In this document: piece after piece, positions 3,555 through 58,458 of the stretch
How positions within the stretch are numbered: the stretch's first letter is position 1
Layout of the letters: each line of letters starts with the position of its first letter
Origin: a bacterium
GTDB lineage: Bacteria > Patescibacteriota > Minisyncoccia > Moranbacterales > UBA2206
Reading direction: 5' to 3'
Length of the DNA: 64,000 nt
Assembly (NCBI GenBank): GCA_030654225.1
Contig: JAURXY010000026.1
Span: 10,448-74,447 of the forward strand
Made by a program: the position numbers and the translations under genes
Notes under the pieces: generated by a model
The model's input: only the letters and a program-made list of their open reading frames with translations
The model's database searches: none
Told to the model about the DNA's origin: nothing

Positions 3555-4115
3555 ATGAAAAAAATCACTCTCGTCCCATTGCTATTTTTGGGTGTAATAA
3601 TTTTTTCTGGTTGTGGTGAAAAAACAGAACAAGTAAACAATGGAGAAAAAGCCACGGAGGTGGTGGCGGATAACAATTCTCCAGTAACTGCAAAAACCGC
3701 GGAAGGAATCTGCGGAATTTTTTCCAAGGAGTTTGTCGCTTCGGCCACGGGTCTAAATGTCACAACCGCCGAAACATATGCCACGGAAGGCGTGGAAAGT
3801 TCCAATTGTCGCTATTATATTGATGGCAAAAAAATCGCGCCAGTGATCACTATTGGGAAATTCAAAAATGATTTGGAAAAAGAAAAAAAGAAATATACGG
3901 AGCATCCACTTTTCAAGGGCTGGAGGATATTAAAGAATGACACAATACCTATGGATAATCTGGTCACCTATAATGAGGTCGGGCAATTGAATGACATTTT
4001 TTTGATCACAGGCACAAATGAATATTATCGCCTAACACTCTATTCTTTCAAAACTATTGGTAGTAACGAGATGATCACGTTGGCCTTGAAAGCGCAGAAA
4101 GAGATTGGAAAGTAA
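3555..4115 (+). CDS. lipoprotein, function unknown
   Basis: signal peptide ending with lipobox FSGC. Confidence 0.5.
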   Translation: MKKITLVPLLFLGVIIFSGCGEKTEQVNNGEKATEVVADNNSPVTAKTAEGICGIFSKEFVASATGLNVTTAETYATEGVESSNCRYYIDGKKIAPVITIGKFKNDLEKEKKKYTEHPLFKGWRILKNDTIPMDNLVTYNEVGQLNDIFLITGTNEYYRLTLYSFKTIGSNEMITLALKAQKEIGK

Positions 4116-9910: not shown

Positions 9911-10246
9911 ATGACTAGATCGGAACGTAAGAGGGAAAGTAATGGCACCGACAGAAGAAGTCAAAGTCAAAAAAAGAAAGACCGAAAGCGTGACAAAAAC
10001 GCTCTCGAAGAGTTGGTCAAGGCTGTTATTGATAGGCTTCCCAGAAAGGATATGACGCATGTCAATAAAGAATTTGTTTGCAATTGCTGCCACTTGCACT
10101 ACTGCGTAGCTTTTGACGGAAATGATGTTTTCTGTCGTGAATGTTTTTTCGTAGAAGGATGTCTCAAAAAAATGAGTGGCAATACTAAAACTTGCAACTA
10201 TTGCGAAGGAAAGGAGATGGGCAGTGAAAGCCATGTTATGCACTAA
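9911..10246 (+). CDS. basic N-terminus + Cys-rich C-terminal zinc-binding-like protein
   Basis: start moved to ATG preceded by GGAGG; 12 Cys in the last 60 aa. Confidence 0.4.
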   Translation: MTRSERKRESNGTDRRSQSQKKKDRKRDKNALEELVKAVIDRLPRKDMTHVNKEFVCNCCHLHYCVAFDGNDVFCRECFFVEGCLKKMSGNTKTCNYCEGKEMGSESHVMH

Positions 10247-25924: not shown

Positions 25925-28015
25925 ATGGCTCGAGAATACCCAATCGAAAAATATCGCAATATCGGAATTATCGCTCATATTGATGCTGGAAAAACCACCA
26001 CCACGGAGCGTGTTTTGTTTTATACCGGTATCACTCACAAAATTGGTGAAGTGCATGAAGGCGCTGCAACGATGGACTGGATGGAACAAGAAAAAGAACG
26101 AGGAATTACCATCACTTCAGCCGCGACAACTTGTTTTTGGAAAGATCATCAAATTAATATTATCGATACTCCGGGACATGTGGACTTTACCGTGGAAGTG
26201 GAAAGATCGCTTCGTGTTTTGGACGGTGGTGTGGTAGTTTTTGATGGCAAGGAAGGTGTGGAACCACAATCAGAAACAGTTTGGCGACAAGCAGAAAAAT
26301 ATAAGGTGCCGAGAATTTGTTTTATCAATAAAATTGACAAAGAAGGTGCTGATTTTTATTACGCTCTAAAAACTATTTGGGACAGACTTACTCCAAACGC
26401 GGTAGCTGTGCAACTTCCGATTGGAGAGCGAGGAGATTTTTCTGGCGTGGTGGATTTGATTAAAATGAAAGCTTATACTTTTTCTGGAGAGATGGGAGAA
26501 ATTGTCAATGAAGAAGAAGTTCCAGCTGACATGCTCGAAAAATCCAAAGAGTGGCGAGAAAAAATGGTAGAAAAAATTTCTGAAACTGATGACGCGCTCA
26601 CAGAAAAATTTTTAAACGGTGAAGAAATTTCGCAAGCGGAACTAAAATCGGCTCTTCGCAAAGGAGTCAACGCCGTGACGCTCGTTCCAGTTTTCACAGG
26701 CACTGCTCTTCGAAACAAGGGAGTGCAATTAGTGCTAGATGCGGTAGTGGATTATCTGCCATCCCCAATTGATGTTCCAGCAATCAAAGCAACGGAAGTT
26801 GATGATGAAACTAAAGAAGTAGCCATTAAATATGATGACAGCGCTCCTTTTTCTGCTTTGGCTTTCAAAGTAGCTACTGATCCATTTGTCGGTCAACTAA
26901 CTTTCTTTAGAGTCTATAGCGGAATGCTCAAAGCCGGTTCTTATGTTTTGAATTCTTCTAAAGGAGAAAAAGAAAGAGTGGGCCGAATTCTGCGAATGCA
27001 TGCTAATCATCGAGAAGAAATTGACGAAATTTATACTGGAGGAATCGGAGCGCTTGTTGGAATGAAAAATACTACTACAGGAGACACTTTGTGTGATCCA
27101 GAAAATCCAGTTTTACTGGAAAAAATAACTTTTCCAGAACCAGTTATCTCAATCGCCGTGGAACCAAAAACTAAAGCTGATCAAGAAAAGATGGGAATGG
27201 CTCTTAGAAAATTAGCCGAAGAAGATCCAACTTTCAAAATTAGAACTGATGAAGAAACGGCTCAGACTATTATCTCCGGAATGGGCGAATTACATCTCGA
27301 TATTATCGTGGATCGAATGAAAAGAGAATTCAAAGTTGAAGCTAATATCGGTCAGCCACAAGTAGCTTATCGAGAAACAATTAAATCCAACGCCCAAGCG
27401 GAAGGAAAATATATCAAACAATCAGGTGGACGCGGACAATATGGCCACTGTTGGATCAAAGTGGAACCGCAAGAAGCTGGCAAAGGATTTGAATTCGTGG
27501 ATGAAATCAAGGGTGGCTCTATCCCGCAAGAATATATTGCTCCGATTGGCAAAGGAATCAAAGAGGCGATGGACAACGGAGTTTTGGCGGGGTATCCAAT
27601 GGTGGACATCAAGGCCACTGTATATGACGGATCTTTTCATGATGTTGACTCCTCAGAGGCAGCCTTTAGAATCGCTGGTTCAATGGCTTTCAAAGAAGCT
27701 TCTCGTCGGGCCAACCCAATTATCATGGAACCGATTATGAAAGTAGTGGTGACGACCCCAGAGAATTTTATGGGGGATGTGGTGGGAGATTTGAACTCCA
27801 AGCGAGGTATCATCAAAGAAATGAATGATCGCGGAGAAGGCAATGCGCGAGTAAAAGAAATTGACGCCGAAGCCCCACTTTCTTCAATGTTTGGTTATGC
27901 CACTCAACTTCGCTCAATGACCCAAGGTCGCGCCAACTATGTGATGGAATTTTCCCACTACGCCGAAGTGCCGAAGAATGTGGCGGAAGGAATTATTAGT
28001 GGGGATAAGAAATAA
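25925..28015 (+). CDS. fusA: elongation factor G
   Basis: G-domain [17 protein letters not shown]; 696 aa. Confidence 0.95.
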
Positions 28016-28024
28016 AATATAGGA

Positions 28025-28070
28025 AACAAATTTAAATTCAGTAGAGACGAGGCACTGCCTCGTCTTTTTC
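28025..28070 (+). terminator. fusA terminator / REP-like hairpin (copy 1 of 46-bp direct repeat)
   Basis: GTAGAGACGAGGCACTGCCTCGTCTTTTT; near-identical at 29026-29072. Confidence 0.75.
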
Positions 28071-28133
28071 TTATGGCAATATGTTTTTTAATTTGGCTTG
28101 CAAATTGGGCTAAAATATGATATAATGTAAGAT

Positions 28134-28364
28134 ATGATAAAGTTTCGTCAGGCATTATTTTGGGATACTAATCCAAAGAATATAGATACAGAGAAAAACG
28201 CTCAATATATCATTGAACGCGTTTTGGATTTTGGCAATGATAGAGAGGTAAAATGGCTTTATAATTTCTACGATAAATCGTTGTTAAAAAAAGTTGTCGC
28301 TAAGTCTCGTTCGCTAATGCCAGAAACAAAAAATTTATGGATAATGCTTCTAGAAAGCAAATAG
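28134..28364 (+). CDS. small protein upstream of AbiEii-family toxin (putative antitoxin partner)
   Basis: 76 aa; overlaps toxin start; recalled similarity to partners of DUF1814 toxins. Confidence 0.4.
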   Translation: MIKFRQALFWDTNPKNIDTEKNAQYIIERVLDFGNDREVKWLYNFYDKSLLKKVVAKSRSLMPETKNLWIMLLESK

Positions 28365-29014
28365 AATATAATTTTAGTATTATACCTGCAAAAACAAAAA
28401 AAGCGTTTGTTTTTTTGTCTGGACAAAATTGGCTTAGCGAAAGCGGATGGTATTTGGCTGGTGGAACTGCGCTGGCATTGCAAACAGGGAATCGCAAGTC
28501 AGTGGATTTGGATTTTTTTACCGTAGAAAAAGATTTTGATAAATCAGAATTGCTTGAAAATTTTTCAGAAAATAAAGAATGGAAAACTACCCTAAATAGA
28601 AAAAATACCGTTTATGGCGAACTGTCTAAGGCCAAAATAAGTTTTATCGCTTATCCTTTTTTTGTTCCTAAACAAGAATTTATCCAATATGGTTCGATTA
28701 AAATTTTGCAACCGCGCGATATTGCCGTAATGAAAATTATCGCCATTTCACAACGCGGACGCAAGCGTGATTTTTTTGATCTGTATTGGTGTGCAAAAAA
28801 TGTGGAATCATTAGAAGATTTGATAATAAGATTGAAAGTGCAATATCCTTTTGTGGCACACGATTATCATCATATTTTGAAAAGTTTAGTTTATTTTCAA
28901 GACGCAGAAAATGATCCACTGCCAGATATCACTTTTAAGGCGGATTGGAAAGAAATTAAGGATTATTTTAAAAAAGAAATTTTACGCATTACCAAAAAAA
29001 TAATCTTAAAATAG
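28337..29014 (+). CDS. nucleotidyltransferase AbiEii/AbiGii-family toxin (DUF1814)
   Basis: LAGGTALALQTGNRKSVDLDFF signature. Confidence 0.75.
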   Translation: MDNASRKQIEYNFSIIPAKTKKAFVFLSGQNWLSESGWYLAGGTALALQTGNRKSVDLDFFTVEKDFDKSELLENFSENKEWKTTLNRKNTVYGELSKAKISFIAYPFFVPKQEFIQYGSIKILQPRDIAVMKIIAISQRGRKRDFFDLYWCAKNVESLEDLIIRLKVQYPFVAHDYHHILKSLVYFQDAENDPLPDITFKADWKEIKDYFKKEILRITKKIILK

Positions 29015-29025
29015 AAAAAGCATTA

Positions 29026-29072
29026 AACAAATTTAAATTCCGTAGAGACGAGGCACTGCCTCGTCTTTTTTG
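29026..29072 (+). terminator. REP-like terminator hairpin (copy 2 of direct repeat)
   Basis: same hairpin and flanks as 28025-28070. Confidence 0.7.
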
Positions 29073-29171
29073 TGGCAAGGATTGCTTTTTTGATTGGGAT
29101 GTGCTTGTATGATGATAAGTTATTTTAACAAAAATTTTATCAACGCATAAAATATATATAAGGGGGAAATT

Positions 29172-29477
29172 ATGAAAAAATTCACGGTTAACATGATAAG
29201 AAAAACTCCCGACTTTTCGGAGGTTATAAATTGTTTTTCAAGCCAAGAGCGAAAATATTATTGTCATGAAATAGATAAATTAAGAGTGACATTTTTCGAC
29301 TATGGTTTGATTGAAGTCTTTATCATGAAAGTAAATCCAGCAGGGCCGGATGTAGCTAGAATAAGCTTGATTGGTTATGACGGATATGATGGGCTCCCAA
29401 TTTGGGATGTGAGAGGAGTGTTCAGAATGATTATGAAAGAGGTAATCGAAAAAATTTCGATGCCAAACTTACTATAA
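29172..29477 (+). CDS. hypothetical protein (strong SD)
   Basis: AAGGGGGAAATT-ATG. Confidence 0.4.
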   Translation: MKKFTVNMIRKTPDFSEVINCFSSQERKYYCHEIDKLRVTFFDYGLIEVFIMKVNPAGPDVARISLIGYDGYDGLPIWDVRGVFRMIMKEVIEKISMPNLL

Positions 29478-29493
29478 TTTTAAGGAGGTAGCC

Positions 29494-29691
29494 ATGAAAA
29501 AAAAGGGAATAAATCCAGAAATTGAAGCGGAAGAAAAAGTAACTACTGAAATTAAGCAGTTTCTTGAAGAAAAAGGAATTTTTGAGAAAATCAACCTGCG
29601 TGTAAAAAAACATATCGCACATCTCGGATTGACTGATTTTGAGGAAGACAATTTTATTCGCAAATGCTTCCACGAAGCATTGCATTATTAA
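29494..29691 (+). CDS. hypothetical small protein (strong SD)
   Basis: TAAGGAGGTAGCC-ATG. Confidence 0.4.
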   Translation: MKKKGINPEIEAEEKVTTEIKQFLEEKGIFEKINLRVKKHIAHLGLTDFEEDNFIRKCFHEALHY

Positions 29692-29805
29692 CTGTGTTAC
29701 CAGGCATTCCCCTTCTCTCATTTACGCATTGGCGTGATAGAGAGGCGGGGATTTTTTATTTGTCGCAAAAATTGTGGTAAAATATTTTATATAAAATTGT
29801 AGGCG

Positions 29806-29833
29806 GTAGAGACGCAAAATTTTGCGTCTCTAC
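29806..29833. repeat. 28-bp perfect palindrome GTAGAGACGCAAAATTTTGCGTCTCTAC (REP-like), copy 1, 25 bp upstream of RAYT gene
   Basis: exact copies at 30147-30174 and 54579-54606. Confidence 0.9.
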
Positions 29834-29858
29834 GATGTGATATAATACAAAAATAAAA

Positions 29859-30416
29859 ATGTCAGAATTATTCAAAAACAAATACACAATTAAATCATCC
29901 AGATTATCAAATTATGATTATTCTCAAAATGGAATGTACTTCGTTACGATTTGCACGAAAGACAAGGAATATTTTTTTGGGGAGGTGAAAAATGGGGGAA
30001 TGGTGTTGAATGATGTGGGGAAAATGGCAGATAAATATTGGCGCGAAATTCCAGCGCATTTTCCATTTGTAAGATTAGATGAATTTGTTGTAATGCCCAA
30101 TCATGTGCATGGGATTGTGGAAATTGCAAAAAACATTGATGCTAGCGTAGAGACGCAAAATTTTGCGTCTCTACAGGGCGAAAGGGGAAATAAATTTGGT
30201 CCACAATCAAAAAATTTAGCCTCTATAATTCGTGGTTTTAAGGTGGGGGTAAAAAAATATACAACAAAAAATGAAATTTATTTCCAATGGCAACCCCGTT
30301 ATTACGACCAAATAATTCGAAACGAAATTTCCCTAAACAAAATTCGTGAATATATCCAAATTAATCCGCAGATGTGGGAAAGAGATAAAAACAGTTTAGA
30401 AAATATATTTATGTAA
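29859..30416 (+). CDS. REP-associated tyrosine transposase (RAYT) / IS200-like HuH transposase
   Basis: HuH motif MPNHVHGIV; C-terminal EYIQINP and RYYDQ Tyr region; contains in-frame REP copy 2. Confidence 0.7.
   Translation: MSELFKNKYTIKSSRLSNYDYSQNGMYFVTICTKDKEYFFGEVKNGGMVLNDVGKMADKYWREIPAHFPFVRLDEFVVMPNHVHGIVEIAKNIDASVETQNFASLQGERGNKFGPQSKNLASIIRGFKVGVKKYTTKNEIYFQWQPRYYDQIIRNEISLNKIREYIQINPQMWERDKNSLENIFM
30147..30174. repeat. REP-like 28-bp palindrome copy 2, in-frame inside RAYT ORF (encodes SVETQNFASLQ)
   Basis: exact palindrome. Confidence 0.9.
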
Positions 30417-30478
30417 TTTTCCATTGACATCCAATTTTAAATAAGTTAGCATTAATTTATCAAGTTAAAATAAAATTT

Positions 30479-30757
30479 ATGTTAGACAAAAAACTCAAAG
30501 AAGCGCTTGATCTCTTGGGAGGAAAAGCGGTGATAAAAGACCAAGAACAATATTATGTGATTCTCAGCCTTTTGGAATTTAAGAAAATAAAGAAAGAAGG
30601 CATAGAAGGCTTGACAAAACAAGAATTGGTTGATAAAATCAATAATGATATAGCAAGCTGGAAAGTGATCCAAGAAGAGGAAAAAATTGAAGATATGGAT
30701 CTTAGCGAAATGAGTGAAGCGAAAAGTGAGGAAATACGCTATGAAAAGACGCAGTAG
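30479..30757 (+). CDS. hypothetical protein
   Basis: 92 aa ORF; acidic C-terminus. Confidence 0.35.
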   Translation: MLDKKLKEALDLLGGKAVIKDQEQYYVILSLLEFKKIKKEGIEGLTKQELVDKINNDIASWKVIQEEEKIEDMDLSEMSEAKSEEIRYEKTQ

Positions 30758-30931
30758 GTCTTATCCACAGCAATAAATATACGGGGGACTTGCCAAAATA
30801 ATAAAAGTGTATTAAACTAAATTTTGTAATATATAACTTAATAAAAAATCGCGACTAATTGCGAATCCGGTATTTATTCCGGAATTTTCCGCTCTGGCGG
30901 GGAATGCAAAAATCGCGCCAAAATTAAAACT

Positions 30932-51803: not shown

Positions 51804-52838
51804 ATGAATATAAAAATAAACGGAAAAATTTACGAGGCAAAAGCAGGTGAAGCAATATTTGCGGTTTGCAAAAAAAATGGGATAAAAGTTCCGACTTTGT
51901 GTTCGACGAAAAAATTTCAAGAAGGGGTATGTCGAATTTGTGTGGTTGAGATAGGCGGAAGATTGGTGACTTCTTGCAATACAAAAGTTTGCGAAGGGAT
52001 GGAAATTGTAACTGAAAGTGAAAAGATTGAAAAAGCACGGCGGATTAATCTGGAACTTTTGTGGGCGGATCACGCTGGGAAATGCGCGACTTGCAAAAAA
52101 AATCAAATGTGCGAATTGCAAAATTTAGCCTTGGAATATAAGATTGAAAATTTTCATTTCATTCCGAGAAAGGGTGAAATAACAGGCGCGGAAGAATTGG
52201 ATTTGATCAAAGATAATTGGTCTCGCGTGGTGGTAGAAAATGAAAATCCCTGCATATCCAGAAATAGCGAGCTTTGTATTGAATGTCGCAGATGTATCAA
52301 TATTTGCCCAGAGAAAAAATTTGGCTTTAACTATCGTGGTAATTCTGTGGTGGTGGGAACTCCTTATGAAAAAGTTTTGGATTGCAGTTTTTGTGGAAAA
52401 TGTGTAGAGGCGTGTCCTACGGGAGCGCTCACGGATCAAAATAATTATTTGAAAATCGTGGAAGATCTGGATAATCTTGAAAAATTTTCAGTGGCTGTTT
52501 TAGATCTCGGAATAGAAGAAAAAATATTAAAGGCGATGGGAAAAATAAGCCCAGAGAAGGATTTGAATAAATTGCTAATCAATTTAGGTTTTGAGAAGAT
52601 TGTAAAATTAGGAAAAGAAAATTTGAAAATTGAATTTGTGAAAAATATTAAAGATGAATATTCCAGAACCAAAAAAATAAATCAGCAAGATATTGTGGTA
52701 TTTTTCATTTCTTCAAGGATTTATGAGAAAGCTAAGCGAGATAAAAATTTGGATTATATTCTAAGTGAAAGGGAAGTGGCGAGATTGGTTAGAGATAAGG
52801 AGAAAATAAAGATAGGAAAAATTCACCCTATTAAATAA
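51804..52838 (+). CDS. NuoG-N-terminal/HoxU-like [2Fe-2S]+[4Fe-4S] subunit with about 110-aa Cys-free C-terminal extension
   Basis: 2Fe-2S Cys; CIECRRC, CSFCGKC clusters; SD GGAG. Confidence 0.75.
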   Translation: MNIKINGKIYEAKAGEAIFAVCKKNGIKVPTLCSTKKFQEGVCRICVVEIGGRLVTSCNTKVCEGMEIVTESEKIEKARRINLELLWADHAGKCATCKKNQMCELQNLALEYKIENFHFIPRKGEITGAEELDLIKDNWSRVVVENENPCISRNSELCIECRRCINICPEKKFGFNYRGNSVVVGTPYEKVLDCSFCGKCVEACPTGALTDQNNYLKIVEDLDNLEKFSVAVLDLGIEEKILKAMGKISPEKDLNKLLINLGFEKIVKLGKENLKIEFVKNIKDEYSRTKKINQQDIVVFFISSRIYEKAKRDKNLDYILSEREVARLVRDKEKIKIGKIHPIK

Positions 52839-52863: not shown

Positions 52864-53085
52864 ATGCAGTATGTTTATGTCTTGAAAAGTAAAAAAGATA
52901 ATAAAAATTATGTAGGTTATACTAAAAATTTAAAATTAAGATTTGAGCAACATAACAAAGGACTGGTGCTTTCTACTAAAAATAGAATACCACTAAGTCT
53001 TATATATTATGAAGCTTGCCTAAATCAACAAGATGCTACTAAAAGAGAAAAGTATCTAAAACTATTTACGGCAAGCGATATATAA
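52864..53085 (+). CDS. GIY-YIG nuclease family small protein (YhbQ-like)
   Basis: YVYVLKS ... YVGYT ... RFEQH ... KRE motifs. Confidence 0.7.
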   Translation: MQYVYVLKSKKDNKNYVGYTKNLKLRFEQHNKGLVLSTKNRIPLSLIYYEACLNQQDATKREKYLKLFTASDI

Positions 53086-53324: not shown

Positions 53325-54354
53325 GAAAATCATAAAAAGTATTTGGGAGAAAGCACAAAAAATTAATCGATCACTTCGATTTATGGAACTTTGTGGAACG
53401 CATTCAGAAAGTATTGCTAAACATGGGATAAAAAATATTTTACCAAAAAATATAAAACTCATTACCGGACCTGGCTGTCCGGTTTGCGTCACTGATCAAA
53501 GTGAAATTGATATTGTCACGGGACTAGCGCTCGCTGGAATTCCAATTGCTTGCTATGGAGACGCCACTAACATTCCTGGAAGTTTAGGTAGCTTGGAAAA
53601 TGCTCGGCAAAATGGTGCGCAAGTTTTCATTGTTTATGATGTGGCAGAAGCCATTGAAATTTCCAAAAAAATTTCCAATTTGGTTTTTTGGGGAATTGGT
53701 TTTGAAACAACCACTTCGATGACAGCATGGGGGATTAAAAACAATCTTACAGTTTTTTCTTCCCACAAACTTTTTCCGCCAGCTATGGAAGCGTTGATGG
53801 CAAACAAAAAAATTAGAGTTGATGGCTTTATCAATCCGGGTCATGTGAGTGCTATTATCGGAACGAAAGTTTATGAAAAATTCCAAATACCACAAGTGAT
53901 TGCTGGCTTTGGCGCAGAGGACGTTCTTCTGGCGATTGAAATGCTTTTGGATCAAATAATTTCTGGAGAAAAAAAAGTGGAAAATGAATATGCGAGACTG
54001 GTGAAAAAGGAAGGCAATATAAAAGCGAGAAAATTAATTTCAGAAGTTTTTGAAATCAGAAATGCTTCTTGGCGAGGTTTGGGAGAAATCAAAAATTCCG
54101 GATTGAAAATTCGAAAAAAATATCAGCATCTTGACGCTGAATTTATCCATCGAGATTTGATTGCGAAAATAAAAAAAGAAATTAAACCAAGAAAAAGTAT
54201 CTGTCGTTGTGGAGAAGTTTTGCAAGGATTGATTGAATCAAAGCAATGTAAATTATTTGGAAAATCTTGCACGCCTGACAATCCTCAAGGTGCTTGCATG
54301 GTTTCGAGGGAAGGGAGTTGTAATATTGAGTACAGATTTATGTCATTCCCGTGA
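53314..54354 (+). CDS. hypD: hydrogenase maturation factor HypD
   Basis: CGTHS ... GPGCPVC motifs; last 4 codons and stop lie inside MITE TIR. Confidence 0.85.
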   Translation: MESKKIIKSIWEKAQKINRSLRFMELCGTHSESIAKHGIKNILPKNIKLITGPGCPVCVTDQSEIDIVTGLALAGIPIACYGDATNIPGSLGSLENARQNGAQVFIVYDVAEAIEISKKISNLVFWGIGFETTTSMTAWGIKNNLTVFSSHKLFPPAMEALMANKKIRVDGFINPGHVSAIIGTKVYEKFQIPQVIAGFGAEDVLLAIEMLLDQIISGEKKVENEYARLVKKEGNIKARKLISEVFEIRNASWRGLGEIKNSGLKIRKKYQHLDAEFIHRDLIAKIKKEIKPRKSICRCGEVLQGLIESKQCKLFGKSCTPDNPQGACMVSREGSCNIEYRFMSFP

Positions 54355-54435
54355 AAACGGGAATCTAGTCATAAAAATGTTTTTATCGCGATAAATTTAA
54401 TTTCTACACTAGATCCCCGCATTCGCGAGGATGAC
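54342..54435. mobile_element. MITE-like element A2 (TIRs GTCATTCCCGTGAAAACGGGAATCTAGT / ACTAGATCCCCGCATTCGCGAGGATGAC)
   Basis: same architecture as 44343-44462; lies between hypD and hypE, overlapping the hypD stop. Confidence 0.65.
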
Positions 54436-54442
54436 AAACTTT

Positions 54443-55450
54443 ATGAATAAAATAATTGAATTAGAAATGGGCGGAGGAGGAAAAAAATCGGAAGAACTTA
54501 TTGGAAACATAAGGAAAATTTTGAATGTTCGTGGAAAATGGAAAAACACTAAGGATGATGGGGCGGTTTTTGACTTGAGTAGAGACGCAAAATTTTGCGT
54601 CTCTACGGGGGGTAATAAGTTGGTGTTTACCACCGATGCTTTTATTGTTGACCCACTGTTTTTTCCGGGAGGGGATATTGGAAAAATTGCGATTTGCGGA
54701 ACGTTAAATGATCTTTCGGTTATGGGCGCTAAGCCGATTGGAATTTCACTCAGTATTGTAATCGAAGAAGGATTTTTGCAAAACGATTTGGAAAAAATAA
54801 TTCAGTCTATAAATAAAATTTCGAAAGTTACAGGCGTTCCGATTGTGACGGGGGACACAAAGGTGACAGAAAAAGGCAAGATAGATAAAATTGAAATTAC
54901 CACTTCGGGAGTAGGGCTCGCTTCAAAAATAATTTCTAATGATGGCGCAAAAGTGGGGGATGATATAATCGTTTCTGGCGATCTTGGTGAGCACGCAGTA
55001 GCGCTTTTGGCCAAGAGATTTAACTATCAAACAAAAATAAAAAGCGATTGTCAACCGCTCATTGCCGAAATTCAAAGTGTAGCTAAATATCTTACTTCTT
55101 GCAAGGATCCAACGCGTGGCGGACTGTCCGCTGTGCTAAATGAAATGGCGGAAAAATCCAAAACTAAATTTGTTTTAGATGAAAAAAATTTACCATTTAA
55201 AAAAGAAACTGTGGCAATTTCAGAACTTCTTGGCATTGATTTTTTTTCTTTTCCATCAGAAGGAAGGTTTGTGGCGACAGTGGCGAGAAAAAATTCCAAG
55301 AGAGTTGTTGAAATTTTGAAAAAATATAATAAATCTGCTAGAATAATTGGAGAAGTGCAAAGGGGCAAAGAAGTTTGGCTGAAAACCAAAATTGGATCTG
55401 TCAAAAAAATTGAAGTGCCAAGAGGAAAATTAATTCCACGGATTTGCTAA
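54443..55450 (+). CDS. hypE: hydrogenase maturation factor HypE
   Basis: DPLFFPGGDIGKIAICGTLNDL; contains in-frame REP-like palindrome. Confidence 0.85.
   Translation: MNKIIELEMGGGGKKSEELIGNIRKILNVRGKWKNTKDDGAVFDLSRDAKFCVSTGGNKLVFTTDAFIVDPLFFPGGDIGKIAICGTLNDLSVMGAKPIGISLSIVIEEGFLQNDLEKIIQSINKISKVTGVPIVTGDTKVTEKGKIDKIEITTSGVGLASKIISNDGAKVGDDIIVSGDLGEHAVALLAKRFNYQTKIKSDCQPLIAEIQSVAKYLTSCKDPTRGGLSAVLNEMAEKSKTKFVLDEKNLPFKKETVAISELLGIDFFSFPSEGRFVATVARKNSKRVVEILKKYNKSARIIGEVQRGKEVWLKTKIGSVKKIEVPRGKLIPRIC
54579..54606. repeat. REP-like 28-bp palindrome copy 3, in-frame inside hypE (encodes RDAKFCVST)
   Basis: exact copy of 29806-29833. Confidence 0.9.
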
Positions 55451-56123: not shown

Positions 56124-57437
56124 TTATTTTCCCAAAAGATAATAAACGATTTGCCCAAAAGAAAGTCCGGCGTCGCCACGGGGTATATTTTTATTGGCAT
56201 AAGCTCCTTTAGAAATAAGATACTCGGAAATTATTTTATTATTGGCAATGCCGCCAGCGATAAAAATATTGTCATGAGCAAATGCAGGTTCAGGTATCTT
56301 GCCTGAACATTTTATTTCTGGAAAAATTTTATTTAAATTGCTAAATTTAAGTTTATCAGAACTTTGCGGTTTAATCGGGACGATTGAACCTGCATTATTA
56401 TAGCATTTTAGTTTTATTATTTTATACAAGCCATTGACTATATAAAGTTGAGCAGTGGCGGCAAGACGATGCTTATCTTTTTTATGTAAGTATTTAATTA
56501 CGTAATTAAATAAATAAGTAGTATCTAAAATATATTCATCTTCCGAAATTGTTATTTTTGGTTTTAAATCAGAATAAGGTTTAGCTGAATTTTTTTCTAG
56601 TAAATCAATGGGTTCATGCTTGTATTTTCGGGCATTCCCACAAAAACCTAAAAGTAAAGAAACAGCATCCAAAACTCTTCCAGCGCTAGAAGTTTCGAGG
56701 CAATTGAAATTTTGTTGAAGCTGATTATATATAAGTTCAAATTCGTTTTTGGTGTAGAATTTTTTGACGAAATTATAAATATTTTTTTTGTGTTGTATCT
56801 CGCCCTTACCCTCTCCTGTCGCGAGTACGCGACATCCTCTCCCAAAGGGAGAGGAGGAATCTGAAAAAAGTTTATATAAAACTCCAATGAGCATTCTGGC
56901 TGGCTCTCGTACAGCCAAATCCCCACCAACCATAACCTGATTTTCCAAATGCCCAATTCGTTTTACGCTTTCTACTTTATTCTTTCTACTTTCTACTTGA
57001 AAGATTTCTCCGCCCCAAATTTTTTCATCTACTCCAAAACCAGTACCATCTATAGCGATTCCATAAAAAGTAGAAGGTAGTAAGTAGGAAGTATTATGCA
57101 AAATTTTGTCTCCAATAGAAGAAAATATGTGAGCGAGGTGATGTTGAATAAAAAGGTGTTTCACTTTATATTTTTTGGCGAGTTTCTCTCCCCAAATAGT
57201 GGTTTTATATAGCGGATGAAGGTCAGTGAGAATTATTTGCGGTTTAATTTTTTGTTTTTTCAAATATTGCAAAACTTCTTTTTGATACCTTTCCCAATTT
57301 TCTTCTTCCAATAAATCCCCAAAATCATCCGAAAAAAATATTTTTCCATCACGAAAAACCGAAAAATTCCCAGCCGATTCAGCGCCGAGAGCTAAAATGG
57401 ATATATTTCTTTTGTATCCAAGGGAAATTGTTTGCAT
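56124..57437 (-). CDS. hypF: HypF C-terminal (Kae1/TsaD-like carbamoyltransferase) domain protein; lacks acylphosphatase, Zn-finger and YrdC domains
   Basis: LALGAESAGNFSV, TDLHP, QHHLAHI, IAIDGTGFGVDEKIWGGE; start trimmed to MQTISLGYK. Confidence 0.75.
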   Translation of the reverse strand: MQTISLGYKRNISILALGAESAGNFSVFRDGKIFFSDDFGDLLEEENWERYQKEVLQYLKKQKIKPQIILTDLHPLYKTTIWGEKLAKKYKVKHLFIQHHLAHIFSSIGDKILHNTSYLLPSTFYGIAIDGTGFGVDEKIWGGEIFQVESRKNKVESVKRIGHLENQVMVGGDLAVREPARMLIGVLYKLFSDSSSPFGRGCRVLATGEGKGEIQHKKNIYNFVKKFYTKNEFELIYNQLQQNFNCLETSSAGRVLDAVSLLLGFCGNARKYKHEPIDLLEKNSAKPYSDLKPKITISEDEYILDTTYLFNYVIKYLHKKDKHRLAATAQLYIVNGLYKIIKLKCYNNAGSIVPIKPQSSDKLKFSNLNKIFPEIKCSGKIPEPAFAHDNIFIAGGIANNKIISEYLISKGAYANKNIPRGDAGLSFGQIVYYLLGK

Positions 57438-57498
57438 ATATGTGATTTCAGTATATAATATTATTAGGATAAAATAAACAATAAAAACAAAATAATAA

Positions 57499-58458
57499 AT
57501 GAATATATTTTCTGTATACAATAACCCAATCCCTTCTATCGCTATAGTAGCAATCGCTATTTTGGGCTATCTATTATTTAGATTTTCAAGAAATAAATCA
57601 GGCAAAATTTTCACGGCCACACCTATCATAAATAGTTTTTCAAAAGACATTACTGATTTAGCTAGGAAAAACCAACTTGATCCAGTCATTGGTCGAGAAA
57701 AAGAAATAAACCATCTCATTATGGTTTTGAGTCGCAGGACTAAAAACAATGCTGTGCTCATCGGGGATGCTGGTGTTGGGAAAACTGCGATCGTAGAAGG
57801 TTTGGCGCATAATGTTTCGCAGAAAAATGTTCCTGCAAGTCTTTTTGGCAAAAGAGTTTTGATGCTTGATCTCAACGCTCTTTTAGCTGGTACGAAATAT
57901 CGGGGCGAGTTCGAAGAAAGAGTAAGGAAGCTCACTGATGAAATATCTAACTCAAAAAGAAAAATAATTCTTTTTATTGATGAAATACATAATCTTATTC
58001 AAGCCGAAAGTTCAGGGGAGTCAGTTTCAGTAGGGGATATTTTCAAACCGGCAATGGCTAGGGGAGAACTGCAAATAGTTGGCGCCACAACCAAGGAAGA
58101 ATATGATCAATATTTTCATACGGACTTAGCTTTCAAAAGAAGAATGCAACCAATTTTTGTGAAAGAGCCGAGCAAAAAAGATACTTTTGAAATTCTTAAG
58201 GGTGTAAAATCAAAATATGAATCTTTTCATAATGTCAGAATTTCCGAAAAAGTCATCAGGGCTTGCATAGAACAATCAGAAAAAATGTTGCCTGGACGAT
58301 CCTTTCCGGATAAGGCGATAGATTTAATGGATGAAGCATCTAGCAAAGCTAGAATGGGATGTATCAACAATAAATCGAAAAAATGTAAAATTATTCCAGA
58401 AGTGAAAATAACAGATGTAGCTCAAATTGCCAAAGAATATCGAGAGGTAAAAAGATAG
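57499..58458 (+). CDS. ClpA/ClpB-type AAA+ NBD1-only protein with N-terminal TM helix
   Basis: DPVIGREKEINHL, Walker A GDAGVGKTAI, Walker B ILFIDEIH; no second NBD. Confidence 0.65.
   Translation: MNIFSVYNNPIPSIAIVAIAILGYLLFRFSRNKSGKIFTATPIINSFSKDITDLARKNQLDPVIGREKEINHLIMVLSRRTKNNAVLIGDAGVGKTAIVEGLAHNVSQKNVPASLFGKRVLMLDLNALLAGTKYRGEFEERVRKLTDEISNSKRKIILFIDEIHNLIQAESSGESVSVGDIFKPAMARGELQIVGATTKEEYDQYFHTDLAFKRRMQPIFVKEPSKKDTFEILKGVKSKYESFHNVRISEKVIRACIEQSEKMLPGRSFPDKAIDLMDEASSKARMGCINNKSKKCKIIPEVKITDVAQIAKEYREVKR

Follow-up and report, generated by a model that had tools for sequence, protein, structure and literature searches.

In a 64,000-nt stretch of DNA from a Patescibacteriota genome (contig JAURXY010000026.1, positions 10,448 to 74,447 of the forward strand), hereafter the window, the gene hypE for the hydrogenase maturation protein HypE contains a 28-nt perfect palindrome, GTAGAGACGCAAAATTTTGCGTCTCTAC, at positions 54579-54606. 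Judged from DNA and protein alignments, this palindrome is an insertion relative to insert-free relatives, and the turn of HypE in which it lies is a site that has repeatedly been filled, swapped and decayed. We consider it probable that the 28-mer is a GTAG-tagged mobile hairpin of the repetitive extragenic palindrome (REP) type, which is mobilised by a REP-associated tyrosine transposase (RAYT), landed in the DNA for the HypE turn and was tolerated there.

An earlier note on this DNA had reported a third copy of the palindrome at 54579-54606 inside hypE, and we found an exact match at those positions. The window holds three exact copies, at 29806-29833, 30147-30174 and 54579-54606, none of which is assigned a strand. 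A search that allowed up to three mismatches also gave three matches, all of them perfect, compared to 0.00 expected from 100 dinucleotide-preserving shuffles. As single-stranded DNA (ssDNA), the hypE copy folds into a hairpin with a 12-bp stem (-13.1 kcal/mol, z = -6.5), and as RNA it reaches -23.5 kcal/mol (z = -5.3). The 28-mer starts with GTAG, which is base-paired within the stem, and ends with CTAC. Two of its reading frames carry no stop and give VETQNFASL and RDAKFCVST; the third contains a TAG. In hypE it extends from the second base of codon 46 to the second base of codon 55 and is translated in frame as S-RDAKFCVS-T. This residue stretch, SRDAKFCVST, is read just before VDPLFFPGG, in line with the placement of the insert N-terminal to the DPLFFPGG motif in the earlier note. 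In both DNA and protein alignments, codons 46-58 (SRDAKFCVSTGGN, 54578..54616, + strand) stand in place of the three-residue G-K-E turn of insert-free relatives.

The host gene is otherwise intact. hypE (54443..55450, + strand) encodes 335 aa from the ATG at 54443 or 339 aa from an upstream ATG at 54431; because a database protein that is 100% identical (P0001) has 335 aa, the former is probably the start. The protein scores 343 bits against TIGR02124 (cutoff 251.6), contains the AIRS and AIRS_C domains and retains the C-terminal PRIC (...LIPRIC), which fits the view that an in-frame insert is tolerated in this conserved enzyme. Its closest homologs carry the names Candidatus Moranbacteria or Patescibacteria. 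We aligned the window HypE with its 120 closest homologs (68-100% identical), resulting in a set of 121 sequences. The insert is missing from 51 of these, which read ...DDGAVFDLG-KE-KLVFTTD..., compared to ...FDLS-RDAKFCVSTGGN-KLVFTTD... in the window. The short turn was also found in 42 of 65 hypE DNA loci. Relative to the insert-free sequences, the window gene has an in-frame net gain of 30 nt, which lengthens its product by 10 aa. In the DNA of L192, a locus without the insert (protein P0010, 85% identical to the window HypE by BLASTP and 88% in the alignment) GATTTGG is followed by GAAAAGAAAAATTAGTT, and the window reads GACTTGA, the 28-mer and GGGGGGTAATAAGTTGGTG. The comparison with sibling genomes proposed earlier thus yielded insert-free relatives with 80-88% identical HypE (P0008-P0011, P0021), L192 among them. 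The earlier note would have given up the insertion had HypE shown no length difference at this position, and the alignments show one of 10 aa and 30 nt. A pairwise phmmer alignment with the crystallised HypE of T. kodakarensis had indicated no length difference. Because a multiple alignment that includes the insert-free relatives places a 10-residue gap in the T. kodakarensis protein (DDGATIPF--GDKHIVFTID), this reading was dropped as a register error in which the loop was matched to a longer N-terminal segment. Among the three crystallised HypE proteins in that multiple alignment, the E. coli loop is 5 residues longer than that of T. kodakarensis and the D. vulgaris loop is shorter.

We mapped the insert on an AlphaFold2 model of the window HypE, based on 64 homologs and numbered according to the 339-aa form (mean predicted local distance difference test (pLDDT) 82, predicted template-modelling (TM) score 0.83). 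In this model, strands at residues 44-48 and 63-67 flank the insert, and pLDDT falls below 50 at residues 56-61. The segment that includes DPLFFPGG (residues 67-80) also has low pLDDT, so the insert is not the only part modelled with low confidence. The model retains the HypE fold (TM score of 0.83 against E. coli HypE, 2RB9). To the question of surface loop or core raised in the earlier note, the prediction answers with an inter-strand loop of low pLDDT, consistent with a loop at the turn between two strands and not in the core; the strand-turn-strand topology together with the low model confidence suggests that it is surface-exposed. In the sibling locus L191, which carries the same insert, HypE (P0002) is 92% identical and the hypE DNA is 84% identical without gaps. 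This gapless divergence fits continued purifying selection on the gene. We infer that the insert is neutral or nearly neutral for HypE.

The same turn is occupied in most of the aligned proteins. Inserts of more than 4 residues were present in 70 of the 121 sequences (58%), and these inserts stem from at least six unrelated palindrome families. The GAGACG family accounts for 23 of the 70 (RDAKFCVST, RDAINRVST, RDALQNVS, VETPRRGVST and others); the remainder comprises 8 PSPYKGEG-type, 7 NVHNGH-type, 6 TLSLxRRGG-type and 6 LGTNFS-type inserts, 2 of RRGSINRTPT and 18 others. Fitch parsimony on a neighbour-joining tree built without the insert region required at least 29 changes between empty and filled and at least 53 changes of state, which are rough estimates given the type of tree and the peptide-based classification of inserts. 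Among the 65 DNA loci, 19 of 23 filled sites contained an inverted repeat that is perfect over a stem of 7 or more, compared to 4% of control segments of equal length from the same genes.

The filled sites differ in what they contain even where their surroundings agree. The scaffold GTAGAGACGC...GCGTCTCTAC occurs at the hypE site with three perfect inner-stem variants, AAAATTTT, GATTAATC and AATTAATT, in different lineages, and a 29-nt variant of the scaffold, GTAGAGACGCCCCGGCAGGGCGTCTCTAC, is also present. The window and L193, whose HypE proteins are 89% identical, have the right flank GGGGGTAATAAG in common next to unrelated palindromes; L004, L016 and L204 likewise have GCGTCGAATAAATTAGT in common next to different GAGACG variants. 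In L205 a PSP-type palindrome and the exact 28-mer stand in tandem. Copies at the site grade from perfect to decayed (for example RDEKFCIST, KGAISRIST and the copy in L011), the pattern expected of insertion followed by drift. Because no RAYT-like gene was found within ~10 kb of hypE in loci L001-L071 and L191-L194, the hot spot does not appear to be due to a linked transposase. As the tandem in L205 and the swapped alleles suggest, a site that already holds a palindrome may draw in further ones or exchange its own for them; this, together with an unusually tolerant loop, is the explanation we prefer.

HypE has a second, minor insert site at R-G-K-E near residues 306-309 (window 55361-55372), another G-K-E turn; it is empty in the window, and at least 11 relatives carry RPARHASRSD- or RPASSAG-type inserts there. 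Palindrome-derived loops seem to be common in HypE and HypF, with an exceptional occupancy of the main hypE site.

The candidate for the mobilising enzyme is encoded 24.2 kb from the hypE copy, in agreement with the 24 kb given in the earlier note. This RAYT-like Y1/HUH tyrosine transposase gene (29859..30416, + strand) encodes 185 aa with HVH at residues 82-84 and Y165 within REYIQINP. Two palindromes, 341 nt apart, are associated with it: one (29806..29833) lies 25 nt upstream of the ATG of the open reading frame (ORF), and the other (30147..30174) lies within the ORF and is read as VETQNFASL in a variable loop between the HUH motif and NKFGPQS. The protein scored 23.0 bits for Pfam Y1_Tnp, which equals the cutoff, and 57.3 bits for NCBIfam REP_Tyr_transpos (NF047646; cutoff 80). 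Its best match among solved structures was E. coli TnpA_REP (4ER8), a weak one (E = 0.17), in which VVMPNHVHGIV aligns with VVLPEHMHCIW, the HUH motif, and WQPRYYDQIIRN...REYIQINP aligns with WQPRFWEHAIRN...VDYIYINP. Y165 thereby stands opposite Tyr115 of E. coli TnpA_REP, which we take to be the catalytic residue known from Messing et al. 2012. Several homologs were named RayT or transposase by JGI and NCBI. The window protein is thus RAYT-like and, going by its motifs, probably works like a RAYT.

The palindrome family shows a link with RAYT-like genes. We compared the 120 closest homologs of the RAYT-like protein (46-72% identical), and most of them have VETQNFASL(Q) or a near variant in the variable stretch between the HUH strand and NKFGPQS; homologs with such an internal element come from Patescibacteria, Zixibacteria, Bacteroidales, KSB1, Nitrospirae, Ignavibacteriae and others. 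The other open frame is used in P0213 (RDAKFCVST) and in P0210 and P0219 (RDAKSCVST), and P0124, P0125, P0209 and P0230 contain 2-4 copies of the element. Because the element is read in two frames within these ORFs, the conserved item is the DNA palindrome, not the peptide. We then inspected the DNA of four RAYT-like homologs (L200-L203) that had been picked from the protein list independently of the 28-mer. L203 has the arrangement of the window: one exact 28-mer falls within the ORF and another lies 116 nt upstream of it. In L201 an exact internal 28-mer is read in the RDAKFCVST frame, and a second exact one lies 85 nt upstream. The internal copy in L202 is decayed, and a near-perfect copy lies 36 nt downstream of the gene. 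For L200, whose peptide is VETHNYASL, a compensated perfect palindrome was predicted from the peptide before the DNA was read, and the DNA contains it (GTAGAGACGCATAATTATGCGTCTCTAC). Flanking copies at RAYT-like genes were also observed in L106, L110, L111, L149, L159 and L202.

An exact-match scan of one genome per species recovered the 28-mer in at least 119 genome stretches. A RAYT-like gene was present in nine of 119 such stretches of 8 kb. Six of the nine have the 28-mer within that gene and the other three next to it, often with variant palindrome copies nearby. Judged from record titles, the matches listed represent ~15 phyla and include Bacteroidota, Ignavibacteriota, Chloroflexota, Cyanobacteria (Nostoc, Fischerella), Acidobacteriota, Elusimicrobiota and Omnitrophota as well as Patescibacteria (Moran-, Falkow-, Magasanik- and Peribacteria) and Alpha-, Gamma- and Deltaproteobacteria. 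Cultured strains are among the hosts (Nibrella viscosa JCM 17925, Marivirga lumbricoides CGMCC 1.10832 and Thiothrix caldifontis DSM 21228), and single metagenome-assembled genomes (MAGs) contain at least 7 (Bacteroidales RGIG1517) or at least 5 copies (Tb.RUG.324). Phage carriage was rejected as the basis of the cross-phylum spread, with the 28-mer found in only 5 IMG/VR viral contigs.

ORFs of at least 200 aa hold 40% of 125 copies from other genomes, compared to 80% of random windows, and those listed that span the element read it as VETQNFASL or RDAKFCVST. Pfam-confirmed hosts of an in-frame 28-mer are a GT1 glycosyltransferase and an O-antigen ligase (Wzy_C) in Moranbacteria, an isoleucyl-tRNA synthetase (IleRS)-like class I synthetase in Falkowbacteria, a valyl-tRNA synthetase (ValRS) in Peribacteria, a ComF-like phosphoribosyltransferase, and C-terminal sorting domains of the type IX secretion system (T9SS) in Bacteroidales. 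The proposal in the earlier note that the element is mobile or copied is supported by the presence of the same 28-mer in unrelated genes, in intergenic DNA and in or beside RAYT-like genes in other genomes.

The copies have the outer arms GTAGAGACG/CGTCTCTAC in common, and each of the inner-stem variants AAAATTTT, GATTAATC, AATTAATT and ATAATTAT is a perfect palindrome; ATAATTAT is the variant foretold from VETHNYASL ahead of the DNA reading. The contig of L205 carries two inner-stem variants, GCGATTAATCGC at 3936-3963 and AAAATTTT in hypE at 10227, so variants can coexist in one genome. In a minority of copies (L093, L106, L111, L131, L147, L189 and L200) the palindrome reaches well past the 28-mer, by at least 15 nt on either side in L093 and to a total of 36 nt in L200. 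Such copies may be palindromic elements of larger size, or else the 28-mer entered a hairpin that was already there.

On this basis we propose the following sequence of events. The RAYT-like HUH/Tyr nuclease encoded 24 kb upstream of the hypE copy would mobilise the hairpin on ssDNA, and the hairpin could land anywhere in the genome. Copies within genes would be kept only if they leave the frame open and if the protein can accommodate the lengthened loop, and would afterwards decay or be replaced or homogenised by related copies. One copy may in this way have entered the DNA for the turn of the HypE beta-hairpin, where it would have survived because the gain of 30 nt preserves the frame, two frames of the palindrome are free of stops and the longer loop is harmless. 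Insertion, tolerance, decay and replacement are documented by the comparison across genomes. The catalysis of movement by the RAYT is suggested by analogy with E. coli TnpA_REP and the 'peel and paste' transposition of the insertion sequences IS200/IS605.

Several observations weigh against this proposal. That the RAYT drives the movement of the hairpin is an argument by analogy, the NCBIfam score of the RAYT-like protein (57) is under the family cutoff of 80, and only 3 copies were found within the 64-kb window. Because hypE has gained 30 nt net and not the 28 of the palindrome, and because the residues that follow it differ as well (GGN in the window vs KE), a clean cut-and-paste of the 28-mer alone does not give this allele, and the exact boundaries of the inserted unit are ambiguous in the alignments. 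The window and L191 have an identical 28-mer, but 12 of the 32 positions that immediately flank it are different (Fisher p = 1.6e-4), and copies of GATTAATC are likewise identical amid diverged flanks. Such a pattern calls for an insertion that was recent or independent, for gene conversion, or for selection acting on the hairpin. Random insertion and tolerance alone do not account for a 58% occupancy of one codon position. No target-site consensus was detected in the 15-nt flanks of 128 copies, apart from a weak T at -1 and a weak A at +1. Insertion at the apex of pre-existing hairpins was considered and rejected as a general rule: flanks complementary over at least 5 nt were seen in just 5 of 126 copies, a number that is nevertheless significant against the 0.3 expected. 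Neither a target motif nor insertion at hairpin apices explains the hypE hot spot.

The invariance of the 28-mer amid diverging flanks, the recurrence of unrelated palindromes at the same hypE codon and the strong RNA hairpin (-23.5 kcal/mol, z = -5.3) could also be taken to mean that a hairpin at this position is functional and kept by selection, for example in mRNA or DNA processing, stability, translational pausing or protein binding, with any palindrome being recruited. We regard this as quite improbable. The hairpin is missing from 51 of the 121 homologs, from 42 of the 65 DNA loci and from the solved HypE structures, and many copies are decayed; such empty and decayed alleles weaken the case for a selected regulatory hairpin. 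Furthermore, the same 28-mer is found in unrelated genes and intergenic DNA of ~15 phyla among the matches listed, and no T run or other signal follows the hypE palindrome. Alternatively, it may be the longer loop itself that is adaptive, e.g. for contacts with HypF or HypC-HypD, and palindromes may simply be the handiest in-frame DNA, an idea that is compatible with our account of how the DNA arrived. The very high occupancy of one site with at least 29 gains and losses, the naturally longer loop of E. coli HypE, the second insert site at another G-K-E turn and the similar variable loops in HypF would all be understandable in that case. Nevertheless, we think it unlikely, given that the inserts are unrelated in length (5-26 aa) and chemistry, that alleles without an insert turn up in all parts of the tree and that the model shows a disordered loop.

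A further explanation leaves the DNA mobile but the RAYT uninvolved: the palindromes could spread through replication or repair by the host, with template switching at hairpins or gene conversion via the GTAGAGACG/CGTCTCTAC arms, or through another enzyme, and the RAYT-like gene would merely be a frequent target. Variants have been swapped in place with unchanged flanks (L004/L016 vs L204, and the window vs L193), RAYT-like ORFs carry 1-4 copies in different frames as a target might, and most 28-mer copies are distant from any RAYT-like gene. On the other hand, the 28-mer is enriched in and beside RAYT-like genes with a recurring upstream-plus-inside arrangement, the GTAG tag is typical of RAYT-associated REPs (PMC3733652), and the catalytic motifs of the RAYT-like proteins are kept; we give this explanation little credence. 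Finally, the palindrome might be technical in origin, for example an adapter or an assembly chimera; a contaminating oligonucleotide could give an identical 28-mer in MAGs of many phyla. We consider such an artefact hardly credible: the 28-mer is present in the genomes of cultured strains (JCM 17925, CGMCC 1.10832 and DSM 21228), reading frames stay open within real genes, compensatory variants and graded decay are seen, and the hypE copy occurs in two independent assemblies with diverged flanks. All of these alternatives explain less than a RAYT-mobilised REP-type hairpin that was tolerated in hypE.

GTAG-tagged REPs and the accompanying RAYT or TnpA_REP genes, together called REPtrons, are reportedly known from the work of Nunvar in 2010 and of Ton-Hoang and Messing in 2012. 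The system described here resembles REPtrons in several respects: its palindrome begins with GTAG, falls within the size range of 20-40 nt and appears to be dispersed in the genome, a gene of the Y1/HUH transposase type has copies around it, and other copies are read in frame within genes. A REP is defined by a conserved GTAG at the 5′ end of the repeat, and intragenic GTAG REPs have been found in genes for known proteins of O. terrae, Thauera and others (Di Nocera et al. 2013, PMC3733652). Unlike REPs, the 28-mer is perfectly palindromic, so that its GTAG pairs within the stem and both strands are identical; its exact sequence is common to ~15 phyla among the matches listed, whereas REPs are species- or genus-specific, and ~40% of its copies lie in ORFs of at least 200 aa. 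In the window two of the three copies are intragenic, at odds with the predominantly extragenic location that is a trait of REPs. Two further differences concern the enzyme: most of its 120 closest homologs have the palindrome within their own ORF, and the window protein scores under the NCBIfam cutoff. RAYT groups that are common in Cyanobacteria and Chlorobia, as well as low-copy REP associations, have been described (PMC5581495).

Classical RPE-1 of the Rickettsia palindromic elements (RPEs) is said to be ~100-150 bp long, to occur in Rickettsia only and to have no known dedicated transposase. Compared to elements of that size and range, the 28-mer is much shorter, cross-phylum and linked to a RAYT-like gene. 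It is like the RPEs in that selfish palindromic DNA lies in frame in still-functional genes and adds a peptide at tolerant positions; in-frame RPEs in genes are attributed to Ogata et al. 2000, as cited in PMC3733652. REPINs are extragenic doublets of two inverted REPs with a short spacer (Bertels and Rainey 2011; PMC8049555). The 28-mer shares with them the character of a REP-derived, non-autonomous replicator associated with a single-copy RAYT, but the hypE copy is single and the two copies at the RAYT-like gene, being 341 nt apart, do not form an inverted doublet. TnpA of IS200/IS605, with its HUH and Tyr chemistry and its recognition of ssDNA hairpins, may serve as the mechanistic model, although in the window no unit of left and right ends brackets the gene and the hairpins are upstream of and inside the ORF.

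Literature searches for the 28-mer or its peptides gave unrelated primer matches only, the GAGACG-type family was not found in the supplements of PMC3733652, and no description of palindrome hot spots in Patescibacteria proteins was found in the searched literature, an absence that is no proof of novelty. Intragenic GTAG REPs and in-frame RPEs are known already, and a single insertion in hypE is ordinary for such elements. Unexpected are the hypE hot spot, the cross-phylum host range and the hairpin inside the transposase gene.

Other insertions were observed in the window. A related GTAG-tagged hairpin, GTAGAGACGAGGCAcTGCCTCGTCT, occurs twice on the + strand: at 28041..28065, after fusA, and at 29042..29066. 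The two belong to the left and right copies of a 64-nt direct repeat (28006-29070, 86% identical), each ending in GTAGAGACGAGGCAcTGCCTCGTCT and a T run, and between these repeats lies a 1-kb DUF6922/AbiEii toxin-antitoxin-like module, inserted between fusA and tuf. All of the spacer from fusA to tuf (28016-30931) forms an island, and the RAYT-like gene is part of it. Between hypD and hypE, an insertion of ~90 nt (54338-54428) resembles a miniature inverted-repeat transposable element (MITE), with the terminal inverted repeats GTCATTCCCGTGAAAACGGGAATCTAG ... CTAGATCCCCGCATTCGCGAGGATGAC. L191 and L193, siblings that are syntenic here, lack it and have the hypD stop directly next to the hypE start. 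The insertion alters the end of HypD (...EYRFMSFP vs ...NFRFTE). HypF (56124-57521, - strand) consists of Kae1-like C-terminal domains only and has two lineage-variable insert sites. One holds SSSPFGRGCRVLATGEGKGEIQH (56835-56855), which contains the palindrome TCCTCTCCCAAAGGGAGAGGA, is absent in L192 and is replaced by other sequences in L193 and L204; the other, ~40 aa near the C-terminus, is filled in the window and L191 only. A small GIY-YIG ORF of 73 aa (52864-53085) lies between hypC and the ORF at 51804-52838, whose counterpart in L191 has Fer2_4, NADH-G_4Fe-4S_3 and Fer4 domains. This GIY-YIG ORF is present in L191, absent in L192 and L193, and is probably another mobile insertion.

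REPs are usually seen as extragenic and species-specific. The 28-mer departs from this picture: it ranges from Patescibacteria to Bacteroidota, Cyanobacteria and Proteobacteria, is often translated in real enzymes and lies inside its presumed transposase gene. A broader reading, which we regard as possible but doubtful, is that it is a sequence-invariant, pan-bacterial hairpin replicator with its own RAYT-like clade, whose ORF contains the hairpin, and that in Patescibacteria with their small genomes such hairpins prefer to insert into or beside existing palindromes and thereby make lasting, cassette-like loop hot spots in HypE, HypF and aminoacyl-tRNA synthetases. If insertion were indeed preferred at palindromes, such elements would be a regular, targeted source of new protein loops and not rare accidents. 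For annotators, VETQNFASL, RDAKFCVST and RDAINRVST in predicted proteins mark the element, not protein homology. The hypE site is a natural experiment: among close relatives, a single codon position may lack an insert, carry a palindrome from one of at least six families, or show a swapped, a doubled or a decaying one. It makes the target choice of REP-type elements, their exchange and their contribution to the evolution of protein loops in reduced genomes testable.

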